From a virus (Duplodnaviria > Caudoviricetes): 64,000 nt of DNA. The position numbers and the translations under genes were made by a program. Below, piece by piece: positions 4,832 to 22,739 of the stretch. The stretch covers positions 224,001 to 288,000 of the IMG/VR virus record IMGVR_UViG_3300021514_000002, one strand, 5' to 3'. The notes beneath the pieces were generated by a model. That model was not told where the DNA came from and did not search any database. It saw nothing but the letters and a program-made list of their open reading frames with translations. Position 1 is the stretch's first letter. The number at the start of each line of letters is the position of its first letter.

Positions 4832-6337
4832 TCAATAGTCAATCTTTCTTTTATTATGAGGGTATTTAGCTTCAGAATAATATCGTATGCGTTGTCTTAG
4901 ATGTTTTTTACTATATTTTAAATCTGAACATATATCGCTAATATTAACAAAATCCTTATCATGTGCTTTTCTTAGACCGCGACCAATCGCCTGTATTACA
5001 CGAATGAACGATTTACCAATGTCTACTAAGACAAGATTAAAGATCCTTTTAATGTTTAATCCTGTGCCTGCGATATTGACAGTAGCAATAACAACAAGAT
5101 TATCATTATCGTTAAAAGATTGGTATATTTCTTTTCTAACATCGTTGTGATCTTTACCATGTAGGAATACTGCTCCAGGTATTTCTTTAGCCAGTTTTTT
5201 ACCAAATGGAACCCCATTGACGAGACATAACACATTTCCCTTGTCCAACAAACTCTTAGACGCAATATGGTTTGCAATCCAACGTAAACGCGATTTTTCG
5301 GAATGCAGAAATGCTTTTTCAGCGGTAAAATCTGGAAAATATGAATCTTTAAATTTCGTATATGTTAACTTTGGTACATCTGGATCATCTTTCGTATCCT
5401 CTACAAATTGGGCATATTGTGCTGTTAGATTGACTTCCAATTGTACTATATCGATTTCTAAATTAGATAAATGTCCTTGAGCAATTAGTTCATGGGCAGG
5501 TATCGTATATTGTACGTCACCAACCGCGATTCTTATTGACATTGCATCGTTTTCATCTTCAGGCAATGTACCAGTACAACCAAATCTAATCGGAATATGT
5601 TTTCCATGATCAATTAATAATTCATTTAATACCGGACCACGTAAGCCCTGACATTCATCAACGATTATCATATCAAACTGGGATATAACAATAGGATTAT
5701 TTTTTAACGTCTGCCATGTCGATACTACATGGGTATGATTCAAGTCTTTAGAAGTACCACTATATTCGCCAACGTCTACGCCAAAAAATTCATACTCAGT
5801 TTTTGTTTGATCGGTTAATGTAGTATCAGGAACAACGATAATAGAACGATAATTCATCGCCCTTTCATATGACAGTGCCAATGCCGCACACATAGATGTT
5901 TTACCACCGCCTGTTCCCGCGATGCCAATTCCACCGCCGTTATTTATAAGGGCATTAACCATATCCACTTGATAATCCCTGACTTCCCATGGTTTATCTG
6001 TATCAGGATCGATAACATGAGAAAAGAAATCTTTAGTTATCAGAGGGATAGAAACAGGCATCGATTTACGATGATCTTCAAGTTCTAATTTATACCCAAG
6101 GTTAGCAACCTTGGGTATAATTTCACTAAGAAGATTAATAAATGTTTTGCCGCTTTTATGAAAATACCGAATTTTACCATCCCATGAACCTAATTGAAAT
6201 TTGGGATTGAAAAAATGACTAGCTGTAAAAATACCATACATTTCATAAAAATAAATAATATGATCAGGATGCATCCCTACAAATATACAGTTTACTTCAT
6301 CTAATAGTACTATTTTACATTTTTTATTTTTTATCAT
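4832..6337 (-). CDS. uvsW: UvsW-like SF2 DNA helicase
   Basis: VRDYQ Q-motif, GTGGGKT, IVDECQ, GCTGT, TGLNIKR, QAIGRGLR. Confidence 0.92.
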   Translation of the reverse strand: MIKNKKCKIVLLDEVNCIFVGMHPDHIIYFYEMYGIFTASHFFNPKFQLGSWDGKIRYFHKSGKTFINLLSEIIPKVANLGYKLELEDHRKSMPVSIPLITKDFFSHVIDPDTDKPWEVRDYQVDMVNALINNGGGIGIAGTGGGKTSMCAALALSYERAMNYRSIIVVPDTTLTDQTKTEYEFFGVDVGEYSGTSKDLNHTHVVSTWQTLKNNPIVISQFDMIIVDECQGLRGPVLNELLIDHGKHIPIRFGCTGTLPEDENDAMSIRIAVGDVQYTIPAHELIAQGHLSNLEIDIVQLEVNLTAQYAQFVEDTKDDPDVPKLTYTKFKDSYFPDFTAEKAFLHSEKSRLRWIANHIASKSLLDKGNVLCLVNGVPFGKKLAKEIPGAVFLHGKDHNDVRKEIYQSFNDNDNLVVIATVNIAGTGLNIKRIFNLVLVDIGKSFIRVIQAIGRGLRKAHDKDFVNISDICSDLKYSKKHLRQRIRYYSEAKYPHNKRKIDY

Positions 6338-8392: not shown

Positions 8393-8989
8393 TTACTTTC
8401 GTTGTTTTCCCTTATGCGCTTTCGTCATCATTTTAACCATTTTATTTAGGCGCTTACGAATATCGTCTGCTTGTAACCATAAATCTTCACCCTTTAAAAT
8501 ATCTACAAGCTCAGCTTCTGTTATGAATGGGATATAATAATCGCGCGTTAAGGTATTGAACCATTTAATAGTTGCTTCAAGTTGCTGTACTTGCTCATTT
8601 CCCTTGCCATATATTCCACCACTAAAATTATGAATCATCATAGTGCTATGGTCATGTATAAGAAATTCATCAGCCGCTAAAAATATTAGTGAACCAAGCG
8701 AATAGGCTTCACCTTCTAAGCTACAGACAATGTGCGCTTCTGAGTATTTCATAGCATTGATAAGTTGGATACCTGTGGATAAATCGCCACCTTGTGTATT
8801 TAGATGAATAATTACGGTTTCATCTGAACTGGCAAGGCGAATTTTGTGTATCATGTCAACATACAAGGCGGGAATATCAATATAACCACTTAAATAATAA
8901 TGCTGAATCTTTGAAACTAACGTCTGTTCATAATATTCATATGCTTTTATTTCACTTTCTACTTCTTCTTCCGCGATTTCTGCTTTCAT
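8393..8989 (-). CDS. clpP: ClpP-like (S14) protease
   Basis: IHLNTQGG, AYSLGS (catalytic Ser), MMIHN (catalytic His), DLWLQA. Confidence 0.8.
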   Translation of the reverse strand: MKAEIAEEEVESEIKAYEYYEQTLVSKIQHYYLSGYIDIPALYVDMIHKIRLASSDETVIIHLNTQGGDLSTGIQLINAMKYSEAHIVCSLEGEAYSLGSLIFLAADEFLIHDHSTMMIHNFSGGIYGKGNEQVQQLEATIKWFNTLTRDYYIPFITEAELVDILKGEDLWLQADDIRKRLNKMVKMMTKAHKGKQRK

Positions 8990-9022
8990 ATATCGACCCG
9001 TGTTAAATTAGTATAATAAATG

Positions 9023-9030
9023 TATTTATA
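9023..9030 (-). promoter_or_regulatory. T4-like late promoter (TATAAATA) upstream of clpP
   Basis: Exact TATAAATA; also seen upstream of genes at 12664, 15954, 18543, 28609, 41807(+) and 59332. Confidence 0.65.
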
Positions 9031-9104
9031 CACTAGCGAGTAAGGGGTTTAATGCTTTTTTAGGTTATTTTTTAAATAAATTATGGTAAATAGTTAGGCT
9101 GCTA

Positions 9105-9890
9105 ATGCAATATACATATATACATCAGAGGGAATTAACTATGGAAAAGTATTATGGCTATGTCTATATCTGGAGAGATTCTAAATGCAATATGTATTGC
9201 ATTGGATCGCATTATGGAACCATTGAAGACAGTTACATTACATCTACGGGGTGGATGGTAGCCGCTTATAAGAAACGACCAAACGATTTTAAAATGCGAG
9301 TTTTAGAATATTTAAACGAGGACGATAAATCGCTTTTATTGGATATTGAACAAAAATACTTAGATATGATAAAGCCAGATGAATTAGGGAAGCGTTACTA
9401 TAATCTTAAAAAATATGCATCAGGCGGCGGAAGGATAATTGGTCAAAAAAATAAACAAGACCATTTAGCGGGTGGTTGGAATAGAGGTTTAGATAAAGAA
9501 ATGATGCAGTTGCGTAAAACTGGCAAATTTTGCATTTTAATAGATAATCCAAAAAGGAAAGCACCAGTAAGGCGAAAGAGTGGATGGCAACATACAGAAG
9601 AAACTAAGCAAAAAATATCGAAGGGGCTTAAAGGAAAGCGAGCGTGGAATAAGGGAATATCACTGACTGATATACAGCGGGCTGCATTGTCTGCTTCATT
9701 AAAAGGCAGAACAGCATGGAATAAGGGCAAATCTAGTTCCGTATCTGCGGATAATGGTAAAAGTGGTGCAAAGAAAATGAGTAAAACCGCACAGGGAAGA
9801 AAACGGCATTATAAAGAGGATGGTAGCTGGACATGGATTTATAATGTTAACGGCGAGTGGAGATTAACCCCACCCACCAATAACGATTAA
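9105..9890 (+). CDS. GIY-YIG homing endonuclease (Seg-like) with NUMOD3-type repeats
   Basis: YGYVYIW...YCIGSH...Y-TS; HTEETKQKIS and repeated AWNKG; opposite strand to its neighbours. Confidence 0.88.
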   Translation: MQYTYIHQRELTMEKYYGYVYIWRDSKCNMYCIGSHYGTIEDSYITSTGWMVAAYKKRPNDFKMRVLEYLNEDDKSLLLDIEQKYLDMIKPDELGKRYYNLKKYASGGGRIIGQKNKQDHLAGGWNRGLDKEMMQLRKTGKFCILIDNPKRKAPVRRKSGWQHTEETKQKISKGLKGKRAWNKGISLTDIQRAALSASLKGRTAWNKGKSSSVSADNGKSGAKKMSKTAQGRKRHYKEDGSWTWIYNVNGEWRLTPPTNND

Positions 9891-10195
9891 CTATTCTGTT
9901 GCCAGGTCGTCAAACCCCGAATCGATCACGCCGCGAGGCGAGTTTCTTCAAAAAAAGCGTCATTAGCTGCTTTTAATTTAATTTATGCCATTTACGATGG
10001 TCATCTGTCGTATCATCCACTAGCCGTTCTTAACCACGTCGAATCCATTTCATCCCCGTTGTACGTCGGCTGAGCCTTTTACAGCGTCGTAAGGCTGGAA
10101 GCCGTTCCAGTCCCCTTACCAGTTGTTCGGTGGAGATGTGGGCGTCGAAGCCCAGTCCGCAATTCTTACTAAATTCGCTTCATATGATAGTATTC
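9885..10195 (-). ncRNA. ssrA: Circularly permuted (two-piece) tmRNA; tag (A)ANDAFFEETRLAA
   Basis: Acceptor half ending CAUCUCCA at 10131 lies upstream of the 5' half GGGGAUG...GAUUCGAC starting at 10057. The 7-bp acceptor stem has G3.U70. P2 pairings CGUGGUU/AAUUGCG and AUGAUA/UAUCAU. Tag reading frame 9970-9926. Outer ends are approximate. Confidence 0.9.
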
Positions 10196-10717
10196 TTATT
10201 TATCATCCTTCGTATTATCTTTTGCCCAATCTAAATTAAGGTCTTCGGCATATTCTTCCACGATTTCAATAGGTTCTTCAAATTTAGGAAGATCTTTACA
10301 TTGTAAACTACCAACATCATAAGAAAGTGTTACATGTGGCTTATAGTCAGGAAAATCGTATGTTGCCTCGTGCTCTTTCATTAATTCCTTATGTCTTTTT
10401 GATAAAGCAGTGCAAGTATACTTCAAAACCAAACACATTGCAACCTTTCCATCATCATCAGGTTGCGACGGCCATTTTTCGAAGCCCGATGGTGTACCTT
10501 CTAATATATCATCATACTTACCTTTGGCCTTATAGTCTGGTAAATATTTTCTACTGTATAATAAAGTGGTATGCATTTTTTCGGGTTCTATGGGATTTGG
10601 TATATCATTATCTTTAATAAACTTTTTAATCGCATTGATAGTTTTGTTACTTAGTCTTACTCCAGCATAAGTTCCTTTTTGTATTTTTTCTTCAATAATC
10701 TCGGTCAATTTCATCAC
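10196..10717 (-). CDS. acb1: 2H phosphoesterase, Acb1 / T4 gp57B-like anti-CBASS nuclease
   Basis: GTYAGV, MHTTLLYSRK and PHVTLSYD (two HxT motifs), YAEDLNLDW. Confidence 0.85.
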   Translation of the reverse strand: MMKLTEIIEEKIQKGTYAGVRLSNKTINAIKKFIKDNDIPNPIEPEKMHTTLLYSRKYLPDYKAKGKYDDILEGTPSGFEKWPSQPDDDGKVAMCLVLKYTCTALSKRHKELMKEHEATYDFPDYKPHVTLSYDVGSLQCKDLPKFEEPIEIVEEYAEDLNLDWAKDNTKDDK

Positions 10718-19917: not shown

Positions 19918-21459
19918 TTAATCATCTTCTTCTAAGAAAATATCAAGGACAGGTTCATCCTTCTCGTCAACGTAGTACACTGCTCTAACTTCTTCAGATT
20001 CATCAACAGATTCAAGAACTACCTTATAACCCCATAAATATTTCATATACCGTAGGGTATCTATTGTTGTTTCAGTCTCCAATGGTCGCTTATTAACCAT
20101 ATAATGACGAAGCGTTAAAGTACGGTCACCCCATCGATCAACATCATATACCTGAATATCAGGTGTCTGATATCCAATATTATATTGTTTCGAAAGTGCA
20201 GAACGTATAGTGGCGTAGCCTTGTTTATTATGAATTCCGCTAATAGTCAATTTTGGATCTTGTTCATCATCATGGACAGCAAACATTCTAAAATTACGCA
20301 TCACCTTTGGGGATAAAAATTGTTGGATAAAACTTTCATCTTTGAAATTTTCAACTGCCCATTTCACATTTTTCAACCAATCGCCATTACCAACCCATTC
20401 TTGGTTACCAAACCACTCGCGGTCTTCTTCTGTTGGTTCCATTGATATGCGTTCAATATCTTGATACATGGCGAAGCCAAGTGCATATGGGTTAATTCCA
20501 CTAAAATAATCATCATCAAAATCACGTTGATGAATTACACCAGTATGTGAAGTATAGAATTCAAGCATAGCTCCATCATCCAAAATCCCCTTATCATATA
20601 AGTCATGTACAATTTTATGATGAAAGAACGTAGCACACCCTTCATTCATGACTTGTGTCTGACGTTGTGGATAAAAGTATTGTGAAATTTTCCGAACAAT
20701 GCGGATAATTTCACGCTTCCAATCATCTAAGCGTGGAGCGTTTTTTTCAATAAAATAAAGGATGTTTTCATGTGGTTCTTTTGGAAAACGATCTTCTTCT
20801 TTTTCATCTTCTTTTTCTGTTGTCCCTGGAACCGTCTTCCAGATATCGTTTAATTGTGATTGGATGTAGGCATCGCGTTCTTTTCTAAGTTCTTCGCTTT
20901 TTTCAAAAGAAAGATGATTAGGACGACTATACTTATCAACCCCATACACTTGCAAAGAATGTGTAGCATCAATTAAAGCTTCTACTTCATCTGTGCCATA
21001 TCGTTCTTCACAATCACGTATGTATTTTTTAGCAAATACAAGATAATCAATAATACCTTCTGCATCTGTCCATTGTTTGAATAAGTAGTTATTAGCGAAG
21101 AAATGATTATGTCCAAACGATGCGTGCGCAATAACTAGCGTTTGCATCATCATGGTATTTTCTTCCATTAAATACGCAATACAAGGGTTAGAATTGATTA
21201 CGATTTCATATGCTAATCCCATACGGCCACGCTTATAAGCTTCTAATTCTCGCACAAATTGTTCACCAAACGACCAATGGGGATAGTATAGAGGCAATCC
21301 TACAGCAGAATATGCATCAAGCATTTGTTCTGAAGAAATAATTTCCAATTGGTTAGGATAATAATTTAATCCGTATTTCTCGTTGGCAATTTTCTGAATT
21401 TCAACATAGATTTCATCTATTTTATCAAAATCCCATTCTTGTCCTGATGTAATTTTCAT
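19918..21459 (-). CDS. spoVR: SpoVR / YcgB family protein
   Basis: YPHWSFG, GLAYEIVINSNPC, AHASFGHNHFF, QTQVMNEGCATF, NPYALGF. Confidence 0.95.
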   Translation of the reverse strand: MKITSGQEWDFDKIDEIYVEIQKIANEKYGLNYYPNQLEIISSEQMLDAYSAVGLPLYYPHWSFGEQFVRELEAYKRGRMGLAYEIVINSNPCIAYLMEENTMMMQTLVIAHASFGHNHFFANNYLFKQWTDAEGIIDYLVFAKKYIRDCEERYGTDEVEALIDATHSLQVYGVDKYSRPNHLSFEKSEELRKERDAYIQSQLNDIWKTVPGTTEKEDEKEEDRFPKEPHENILYFIEKNAPRLDDWKREIIRIVRKISQYFYPQRQTQVMNEGCATFFHHKIVHDLYDKGILDDGAMLEFYTSHTGVIHQRDFDDDYFSGINPYALGFAMYQDIERISMEPTEEDREWFGNQEWVGNGDWLKNVKWAVENFKDESFIQQFLSPKVMRNFRMFAVHDDEQDPKLTISGIHNKQGYATIRSALSKQYNIGYQTPDIQVYDVDRWGDRTLTLRHYMVNKRPLETETTIDTLRYMKYLWGYKVVLESVDESEEVRAVYYVDEKDEPVLDIFLEEDD

Positions 21460-22739
21460 TGTGCTTCTCTTTTCTCGAATAAACTTCTAAAAATAGGATA
21501 TATTTCAGTAACATCCCGAACATTTGCCATTTCAAGGTTTTTAAATTCGCCTTTTAGTGCTTCATAGTGCGGCCACAAATCACTTTCTTCACCATTGCGC
21601 CACTGGTCAACTTCAACGTATGCAAAATATTGGCTTTGTGGTAAAAGATATTTTCTCATAATATCACATGCTTCAATATTATCGCGACCCCAATTATCGC
21701 CGTCAGAAATCTGACAACCAAAAATATTCCATTGGTTTGTTGGATATCTTTCTGCTATAATTTCTTTCATTAATAACAACGCAGAGGATACAACAGTACC
21801 ACCTGTTTCATGTGAATGAAAAAATTCATCTTCATCAACTTCCGAAGCACGTGTATGGTGGCGTATCCAAACAATATCAACACGTTCATAATTATAATGA
21901 AGAAATAACAACATCAACATAAAGAAGCGTTTTGCCATTTCTTTTTCCCATTCACCCATACTTGCCGATACGTCCATAATACCGAACATGACCGCTTGCG
22001 TAGTAGGCGTTGGAACTTTTTCCCAGCGATTATAACGAAGATCCATATCATCAATAAATGGCACTGCTTTAATCTTACGCTTGAGTGCATTGATTTGATC
22101 GTTTAACTTCTCAATACGAGACATGTTTTGTTCAATAACATCAATACCAGCTAGTTCCGCAAGAAGCAATTTTAATTTTTTCTTCTTCGGAGAACGGAGA
22201 GCTAAACGTCTACCCTTTGCACGCTTCATTGATTGTAGAATATTTAAGCGACTAGGGTTACCATCTACGGAAAATCCCGCCCTGTGATTTTCATATTCTT
22301 CTATCTTGGTGATAGTCTTTTTTACCATATCTGGTAATTCAAGGTCTTCAAAAAATAAATCAAGAAATTCTTCTTTTGTTAAATGAAAAGAAAAATCGTC
22401 TTCGCCTTCACCTTCTGGTGTACCTTCTTTACCAGCACCAGCACCACCTTCGGGCGGGCGGGCATGGCGATCACCTTGATTAAATTTTTTATTTCCTGGA
22501 GCAACAAAATCTTTAATACCACCTTTTTTGTCGTGGTGAAACGTAGGTTGATCTAGCCCTTTTCCTGGAATTTTAACTTTCTTTTCTTTACTATTAACGA
22601 TATCGCCAATACTTCCATCGCGAATGGTATCTTTAACAGCATCACGTACTTGTTGTTTTACGCGCTTAACAAACCGACGACGATTATCGGTACTTTTACC
22701 TTTATCGTTCTTTCTTCTGTCTATTATAATATGTGCCAT
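21456..22739 (-). CDS. yeaH: YeaH/YhbH family (vWA domain) protein
   Basis: IIDRR...NRRRF, MDVSASM (MIDAS-like), ETGGT, ISDGDNW, YVEV. Confidence 0.95.
   Translation of the reverse strand: MAHIIIDRRKNDKGKSTDNRRRFVKRVKQQVRDAVKDTIRDGSIGDIVNSKEKKVKIPGKGLDQPTFHHDKKGGIKDFVAPGNKKFNQGDRHARPPEGGAGAGKEGTPEGEGEDDFSFHLTKEEFLDLFFEDLELPDMVKKTITKIEEYENHRAGFSVDGNPSRLNILQSMKRAKGRRLALRSPKKKKLKLLLAELAGIDVIEQNMSRIEKLNDQINALKRKIKAVPFIDDMDLRYNRWEKVPTPTTQAVMFGIMDVSASMGEWEKEMAKRFFMLMLLFLHYNYERVDIVWIRHHTRASEVDEDEFFHSHETGGTVVSSALLLMKEIIAERYPTNQWNIFGCQISDGDNWGRDNIEACDIMRKYLLPQSQYFAYVEVDQWRNGEESDLWPHYEALKGEFKNLEMANVRDVTEIYPIFRSLFEKREAQ

Follow-up and report, generated by a model that had tools for sequence, protein, structure and literature searches.

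Does the virus represented by IMG/VR record IMGVR_UViG_3300021514_000002 encode its own two-piece transfer-messenger RNA (tmRNA) and, if so, what might it gain from it? The record is a virus contig of 363,531 bp with a GC content of 36%, and the window analysed here, a stretch of 64,000 nucleotides (nt), corresponds to its bases 224001-288000. An earlier note, made from the letters of the window alone, had proposed a phage-encoded, circularly permuted two-piece tmRNA gene at 9885-10195. The proposal was borne out by ARAGORN, by the Rfam families RF04321 and RF01849 and by our reading of the sequence. On sequence evidence, the locus is a genuine, complete, circularly permuted tmRNA (ssrA) gene encoded by a phage. 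We consider it likely, at a probability of about 0.8, that it specifies a working permuted tmRNA of a lytic T4-like jumbo phage, to which it would bring added ribosome-rescue capacity.

Architecture of the permuted gene

Both tools that the earlier note had suggested as a check detect the gene. A single permuted tmRNA was called by ARAGORN in the window (9835-10219, minus strand; tag AANDAFFEETRLAA). With Rfam 15, the model RF04321 (tmRNA_permuted) aligned over its full length (1-213) to 9926-10189 with 105.8 bits (E 1.3e-19), for a cut-off of 47 bits, and RF01849 (alpha_tmRNA) matched 9885-10243 with 62.9 bits, for a cut-off of 50 bits. The score with RF01850 (beta_tmRNA), 54.9 bits, is below the cut-off of 84 bits for that family. 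The Rfam E-values, together with the conservation of the gene in related phages, exclude a chance match.

According to the Rfam alignments and to sequence reading, the minus strand carries in succession an acceptor half (10190-10129), a spacer (10128-10058) and a coding half (10057-9885). The acceptor piece (10129..10190, minus strand), which represents the 3' half of the tRNA-like domain, was delimited by the RF04321 alignment and by sequence reading, its 5' end being a prediction. It comprises the 5' strand of helix P2 (UAUCAU, 10189-10184), the T-stem (UGGGC, 10154-10150, and GCCCA, 10143-10139) with the T-loop UUCGAC (10149-10144), the 3' strand of the acceptor stem (CAUCUCC, 10138-10132) and, by sequence reading, a discriminator A (10131) followed by an encoded CC (10130-10129). 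The coding piece (9885..10057, minus strand) is defined by the tag that ARAGORN reported and by the Rfam alignments, and its 3' end is predicted from the sequence. It starts with the 5' strand of the acceptor stem (GGGGAUG, 10057-10051), which pairs with CAUCUCC, followed by an analogue of the D-loop, AAAUGGAUUCGACG (10050-10037), and the 3' strand of P2 (AUGAUA, 10016-10011). The pseudoknot PK1 would then be formed by CGA (10010-10008) with UCG (9997-9995) and by UG(A)CCA (10003-9998) with UGGCA (9990-9986). The tag frame AANDAFFEETRLAA covers 9970-9929 and ends at a UGA stop codon (9928-9926); a CGCC/GGCG hairpin is found at 9940-9929, and a 3' hairpin (UUGAC, 9913-9909, and GUUAA, 9891-9887), whose loop contains ACCUGGCAACAGAA, closes the piece.

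The acceptor stem has seven pairs, among them G3·U70, which with the discriminator A makes up the alanine identity set. As the encoded CC is followed by G, the terminal A of the CCA end is not encoded and must be added. The T-arm has a 5-bp stem and a UUCGA-type loop of 6 nt rather than the usual 7, seen as a one-base deletion in the Rfam alignment; this length is atypical, although membership of the family does not depend on it. The tag frame runs from an alanine resume codon, GCA (9970-9968), to UGA and has a hydrophobic xAA end, and the 3' loop is identical over 14 nt to the alpha consensus. The order of the two halves, the intact G3·U70 pair in GGGGAUG/CAUCUCC, the atypical 6-nt T-loop and the tag frame were all as the earlier note had described them. 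Among the open reading frames (ORFs) of at least 50 residues in the phage genome, none ends in the ssrA-like tail [LVI]AA.

The spacer between the predicted mature ends (10058..10128, minus strand) is 71 nt long. Its approximate size and its hairpin had been recognized correctly by the earlier note, which had set its bounds at 10127-10058. The hairpin is nested, with GUAAGG (10119-10114) facing CCUUAC (10094-10089) and CUGGAA (10110-10105) facing UUCCAG (10100-10095), and the folding energy of the spacer is not unusual relative to shuffled sequences (z = -1.3). We considered whether the spacer might be a coding gene or a repeated element, and discarded both ideas given that it contains no ORF and has no second copy in the genome. 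In related phages, its length ranges from 17 to 71 nt in five cases and is about 95 nt in a sixth, and its sequence is not conserved. In contigs of relatives from run X6, the segment from 10058 to approximately 10125-10129 is exactly replaced by 12 to 16 unrelated letters. A linker that is discarded from between two mature RNAs should vary in just this way, with the differences confined precisely to the stretch between the predicted ends.

Conservation in uncultured phages

Relatives were sought among viral contigs with the protein sequence of the Acb1-family gene located upstream of the tmRNA, with the 3' RNA motif and with the alpha-type 3' signature. At least six uncultured relatives (L128/L137, L129/L136, L130/L138, L135, L139 and L080) harbour a permuted tmRNA in the order Acb1, tmRNA, ClpP-like protein, primase. 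Their RF04321 scores are between 87.7 and 125.2 bits where Rfam was run; the tmRNA of L080 was called by ARAGORN only. The earlier note was concerned that one-piece-only scanners could miss this gene. In the window, it is not hidden from standard tools, as ARAGORN and Rfam both find it; among the relatives, however, ARAGORN finds the gene of L080 and misses it in five (L128, L129/L130, L135 and L139). A 24-mer from the tRNA-like 5' core, searched for as an exact match, was not found in the viral contigs, and a loosened pattern of that core detected only beta-type or standard tmRNAs and no relatives.

The clade is diverged, with identities of 53-76% for the ClpP-like protein and 47-83% for the primase. 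In the nearest relative, L135, the acceptor and coding pieces are 86% and 74% identical, respectively, to those of the window. Nevertheless, the RNA architecture is maintained by changes on both sides of its helices. P2 is formed by AUCAU/AUGAU in the window and L135, CACAG/CUGUG in L128, CGCUGU/ACAGCG in L129 and CACUGU/ACAGUG in L139. In the acceptor stem of L129, three pairs other than G3·U differ; two of these have both sides changed, G2-C being replaced by U-A and A5-U by G-C. G3·U itself is retained, as it is in all five relatives checked. Inspection of the sequences also revealed covariation in the stem of the 3' hairpin (GAC/GUC, UGAU/AUCA and AAC/GUU). For PK1, two stems can be drawn by inspection, with CGG/CCG and CAAU/AUUG as their counterparts in relatives; in the window, the Rfam stem includes one non-canonical pair. 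Minimum free energy folds of single sequences recovered the acceptor stem and the T-arm in four of the five members folded, L135 being the exception, and recovered the long-range P2 reliably in none.

The tag frames are similarly preserved. Those of five relatives have 14 codons, are in frame and are of a single style (ANDAFYDEELRLAA, ANDAYYGEDLRLAA, AANDSFYGDFAIAA and ANDDYYMDTYALAA), and that of L080 has 12 residues (ANDESYAYAMAA). Every one of these tags keeps the frame and terminates in [LIM]AA.

The T-loop is more variable. It is 6 nt long (UUCGAC or UUCGAA) in the window and in L135 and L129, is of a GGCAG type with 7 or 8 nt in L139 and L128, and is canonical in L080 and in the cultured Xanthomonas phage XacN1. 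Among the members with a 6-nt loop, the closing pair of the T-stem covaries, being C-G in the window, U-A in L135 and C-G in L129. The GGCAG-loop members differ in the D-loop analogue as well, with UAGG or UAGU instead of UGGA, in a small number of sequences. We also asked whether the 6-nt loop might point to a bacterial source. With one genome per species, such loops were found in only 28 genomes scattered over many phyla, none of them alphaproteobacterial, and the loop was not retained as a marker.

Two-piece tmRNAs are reportedly known from Alphaproteobacteria (Caulobacter; Keiler, Shapiro and Williams, 2000) and from Betaproteobacteria (Sharkady and Williams, 2004). The gene of the window resembles the alphaproteobacterial type (RF01849) in its gene order, its 14-residue AAND...AA tag style and its ACCUGGCAACAGAA 3' loop, and differs from it by a score that is low for the family, by shorter pieces and by its location in a phage. 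It shares the permutation with the betaproteobacterial type (RF01850), and in L128, L129, L135 and L139 the loop of the 3' hairpin is CCUUGuuACcaAA-like; nevertheless, the window remains below the cut-off of that family. The nearest relative, L135, passes the beta model (94.8 bits), L139 passes the alpha model (84.1 bits), and neither model is passed by L128 or L129. The 3' loop is that of the alpha consensus in the window and beta-like (CCUUGUAACCCAA) in four relatives. As the label flips within the clade, the subtype is uninformative here, and judging from these scores the curated Rfam subtypes do not partition this phage lineage.

The carrier genome, expression signals and neighbouring genes

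The major capsid protein encoded in the contig is of the T4 type (Pfam Gp23, E 7.8e-97). Its closest homologues are those of the Xanthomonas phages XacN1 (61% identity) and Xoo-sp13 (59%), the Stenotrophomonas phages CM1 and RAS14 (55%) and the Ralstonia phage RsoM2USA (50%). From these sequence comparisons, the carrier is a T4-like jumbo phage, and it is therefore taken to be lytic. When the tmRNA and a 22-kb part of the window were compared at the nucleotide level with 50,697 phage records, no matches were returned. The description of the tmRNA as phage-encoded thus agrees with the 363.5-kb virus contig, with the capsid type and with the synteny in related viral contigs.

The gene stands out by a local GC content of 45-47% in a genome of 36%, as bacterial DNA joined to the phage contig by misassembly or host contamination might. 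We give this explanation hardly any credence, given that structured RNAs are normally GC-richer than the AT-rich genomes that encode them. The phage DNA is present in hydrothermal-vent metagenomes, one run of which may be the source, with the whole locus contained in a single 137-kb contig of run X1, and a second vent study (X2) yielded identical pieces from both flanks, one in the homing-endonuclease gene located 3' of the tmRNA and the other extending from 10182, at the 5' edge of the tmRNA, into Acb1. Furthermore, at least six independent viral contigs show the same arrangement of genes, and the genes flanking the tmRNA are phage replication genes. No RNA data set was listed among the public runs that contain the sequence; the lone run marked 'RNA?' is probably DNA and contains relatives only.

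A box with the sequence GATAAATA (10197..10204, minus strand) precedes the tmRNA and matches at seven of eight positions TATAAATA, the T4 late-promoter consensus. Transcription is predicted to start close to 10190, where the acceptor piece has its first helix; from the position of the box, the 5' end of the precursor would nearly coincide with that of the acceptor piece. The motif TATAAATA occurs 56 times in the genome; 42 copies are not fully inside ORFs, and for 31 a co-oriented start follows within 60 nt. Control motifs of matched composition have 5 to 8 such upstream placements, although their copies are more numerous. TATAAATA thus has the distribution of a promoter signal in this genome, and its enrichment at intergenic co-oriented positions makes the late promoters of the phage mappable by motif. 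In five of the six clade members, a box with at least seven of eight matches is found 4 to 7 nt upstream of the first tmRNA helix. The tmRNA is thus probably transcribed from a promoter of the T4 late type, GATAAATA.

On the 3' side, the tmRNA converges with a gene for a free-standing homing endonuclease with a NUMOD3 motif (9105..9890, plus strand; phrog_314, Pfam NUMOD3), whose stop codon (9888-9890) overlaps the 3' hairpin. None of the clade relatives with sequence across the interval between tmRNA and ClpP has this gene; the contig of one relative spans the distance from 8971 to 9973 with 365 nt, compared with 1001 nt in the window. The relatives have a clear intrinsic terminator downstream of the tmRNA. 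The lack of one in the window is attributable to the homing-endonuclease gene, which occupies its place. L129 and L130 have an insertion at the opposite side of the tmRNA, consisting of a different reverse-strand ORF (about 3670-4340 in L129).

Three observations weigh against a working tmRNA. No terminator-like site was found on the minus strand of the window at the 3' side of the gene, two pairs in segment P2b of the Rfam consensus are non-canonical here, and with 6-nt or GGCAG T-loops the interactions with the D-loop analogue and with SmpB could differ from those described in textbooks. The 6-nt T-loop, the terminal A that is not encoded, the missing terminator and the insertion of a homing endonuclease at the 3' end could be read together as erosion, and the gene scores low with the Rfam subtype models (62.9 bits for alpha and 54.9 bits for beta); it would then be a functionless passenger in decay, either a captured bacterial tmRNA or the remnant of an attachment site in ssrA. 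This is improbable in our view. The gene is complete, compensatory changes and an intact tag frame are found at the same locus in at least six diverged relatives, and the 6-nt T-loop is itself conserved in three members with a covarying closing pair. Moreover, no tyrosine integrase was found in the phage genome, and a T4-like phage is lytic.

The minus-strand gene order around the tmRNA is DHFR, a small ORF, an Acb1-family phosphodiesterase, the tmRNA, a ClpP-family protease, a primase and a helicase. The Acb1-family 2H phosphodiesterase (anti-CBASS; 10196..10717, minus strand) was identified with Pfam PF23474 (127.8 bits, E 3.4e-37), and its stop codon (10198-10196) is located 6 nt before the first helix of the tmRNA. 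This match ruled out an assignment of the upstream gene as a tRNA or tmRNA repair ligase, as the PHROGs label 'RNA ligase' would have it. Acb1 is kept in all clade relatives and in XacN1, Xoo-sp13, RAS14 and RsoM2USA (38-44% identity).

The ClpP-family serine protease gene (8393..8989, minus strand) was recognized with Pfam CLP_protease (47.9 bits) and phrog_1827 (E 4.5e-52). The best matches of its product among solved structures are all ClpP proteins, and the alignment retains the Ser (GEAYSLG) and His (MIHNF) motifs. The succession tmRNA, ClpP, primase is kept in L128, L129/L130, L139 and L080. Outside the clade, the adjacency of tmRNA and ClpP was found in none of about 120 other viral tmRNA loci; in RsoM2USA, there is a weak ClpP-family match 1 kb from the tmRNA. 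The adjacency is indistinguishable from an inherited gene order.

The phage genome encodes 45 tRNAs, two of which have the amber-suppressor anticodon CUA, and an enzyme of the CCA-adding family; its tmRNA gene is single-copy. Searches of the 363.5-kb genome found no SmpB and no ClpX-type AAA+ domain. Genome-wide recoding of TAG was considered and is not supported, as code 11 already covers 84% of the genome. TAG terminates 33 of 286 long ORFs. Reading through TAG raises the stop-to-stop ORF coverage from 0.57 to 0.71 at 120001-140000 of the genome and from 0.61 to 0.76 at 160001-180000, and the use of suppressor tRNAs may be regional. One of the two tRNA-CUA genes (28952-29023) is embedded in the variable region of a GOLLD RNA (Rfam RF02032, 199.3 bits; window 28630-29088, minus strand), and the second (28271-28344) is 300 nt downstream of that RNA. 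A suppressor tRNA and a permuted tmRNA occurred together in only one of 74 viral loci. Separately, the unrelated viral contig L006 (IMGVR_UViG_3300032516_000242) harbours a beta-type permuted tmRNA (2138-2507) with an unusually long tag of 26 residues, a tRNA-CUA (4907-4981) 2.4 kb from it and a homologue of the homing endonuclease of the window at 36% identity. Elsewhere in the window, two adjacent genes code for large proteins assigned to phrog_35217 (19918-21459, minus strand) and phrog_19072 (21456-22739, minus strand; a SpoVR-like 'sporulation protein' match), with 51-54% identity to proteins of the 630-640-kb uncultured huge phages LR745206, LR756502 and LR756504 and of RsoM2USA.

Cultured relatives and the proposed role of the tmRNA

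RF04321 detected permuted tmRNAs in three of the cultured relatives: XacN1 (123 bits; AP018399.1, 37231-37530 and 356026-356325, the two copies lying in the terminal repeats), RsoM2USA (97 bits; MG752970.1, 331728-331923) and Xoo-sp13 (65.7 bits; MN047793.1, 39030-39373). No permuted tmRNA was found with this model in RAS14. The genes of XacN1 and RsoM2USA correspond to unannotated gaps in their GenBank records, and the genome papers of these two phages do not mention a tmRNA. ARAGORN calls both, with an implausible tag for RsoM2USA, and misses that of Xoo-sp13. By score, those of XacN1 (108 bits) and RsoM2USA (92 bits) fall into the beta type, and that of Xoo-sp13 passes the general permuted model only.

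Like the phage of the window, these three are jumbo phages with large tRNA sets and permuted tmRNAs, and their capsid proteins are 50-61% identical to its own; XacN1 and RsoM2USA also have amber-suppressor tRNAs, and XacN1 a GOLLD RNA. In XacN1, two tRNA-Sup genes, the tmRNA and GOLLD (227 bits) form a matching set within about 3 kb. Nevertheless, the three tmRNAs are located elsewhere in the genome than that of the window, and the tags read from them differ. The XacN1 tmRNA, among tRNAs in the terminal repeats, has a canonical 7-nt T-loop and the tag ANANTFDYALAA. BLAST comparisons found the gene of the window and those of the cultured phages to be similar in the shared core only, and common descent is not demonstrated by them.

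Phage two-piece tmRNAs have already been published: 53 of the 133 unique phage tmRNAs collected by Buchholz et al. (2022; PMC9004378) are two-piece genes, and XacN1, which among cultured phages is the closest to that of the window, is labelled 'Permuted' in their Table S1. The 2025 tmRNA database, from which RF04321 originates, contains 79 phage sequences. The kind is thus known, and the gene of the window is a further member. As in the tmRNAs of Melnitz, a Methylophilales phage, and of pelagimyophages (PMC9004378), the gene is permuted, belongs to a lytic T4-like myophage without SmpB and has a complete tag frame; as with those phage tmRNAs, its form need not match that of the host's. Unlike them, it has no glutamine riboswitch or other Rfam element attached, belongs to the XacN1-like jumbo lineage, is located between acb1 and a clpP-like gene and has a 6-nt T-loop. 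The tmRNAs of cluster C mycobacteriophages and of DS6A are likewise carried by phages and need the host SmpB, but they are not permuted, and that of DS6A has no tag frame (PMC11915505).

For the working tmRNA that we favour, the following sequence of events can be proposed. The minus strand would be transcribed as one precursor containing the acceptor half, the 71-nt spacer and the coding half. By analogy with known two-piece tmRNAs, host RNase P would cut before G10057, and 3' trimming would halt after C10129; the terminal A of CCA would be added by the phage's own CCA-adding enzyme or by that of the host. The two products, with lengths of about 62 nt for the acceptor piece and about 173 nt for the coding piece, would be held together by the 7-bp acceptor stem and by P2. 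The host alanyl-tRNA synthetase (AlaRS) would charge the RNA, and host SmpB, required because the phage has none, would deliver it with EF-Tu. On stalled ribosomes, translation would resume at GCA (9970) and append AANDAFFEETRLAA. In the E. coli tag, the AAND start and the LAA end are the parts read by SspB and ClpX. As the predicted tag matches both, tagged fragments would be degraded by Clp-type proteolysis, with recycling of the ribosomes. What the phage would likely gain is additional ribosome rescue during heavy late translation. Such a benefit would fit a phage with 45 tRNAs and two amber suppressors, because suppressors raise read-through to the ends of mRNAs.

The RNA might instead serve to occupy host SmpB, AlaRS or stalled ribosomes and so shut down or redirect trans-translation by the host, for instance to overcome a host response that relies on it, or to tag host nascent chains as a source of amino acids. 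A phage tmRNA without a cognate SmpB must compete with that of the host, and the non-canonical T-loops of the clade could reflect an altered use of partners. The tmRNA of DS6A, reduced to the tRNA-like part, is reported to inhibit the endogenous E. coli tmRNA (PMC11915505), and selective tagging of host proteins is raised as an option by Buchholz et al. (PMC9004378). However, a pure competitor would not need the full tag frame with its degradation-type ending, in frame in all relatives, and the probable late promoter fits support of phage translation better than an early shut-off of the host. We therefore hold such a role to be unlikely, and rescue on behalf of the phage remains our preferred reading. 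An extension of rescue, in which the tmRNA and the ClpP-like protein form a late-expressed 'tag and destroy' unit of the phage, is a speculative proposal to which we attach similarly little weight. The unit would clear products of amber-suppressor read-through or products truncated by decay of host mRNAs, and the non-canonical T-loops of the clade would be a sign that the interaction with host SmpB or the ribosome has been adapted.

Taken alone, one further phage with a two-piece tmRNA carries modest weight. Some modest interest attaches to the non-canonical T-loop, to the way in which the subtypes break down, to the probable late promoter, to the homing endonuclease that takes the place of a terminator and to the under-annotation of cultured relatives. 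Given that the gene is lacking from the database records of XacN1 and RsoM2USA and goes unnoticed by ARAGORN in five of the six uncultured relatives, RF04321 should be included in annotation pipelines. In phage lineages, the alpha and beta labels of Rfam break down. The known hosts Xanthomonas and Ralstonia use a one-piece tmRNA. The permuted tmRNA appears as a recurrent cargo of XacN1-like jumbo phages, from phages of soil plant pathogens to a deep-sea vent phage, and the cultured relatives represent a tractable system in which to establish what a phage gains from a tmRNA of its own.

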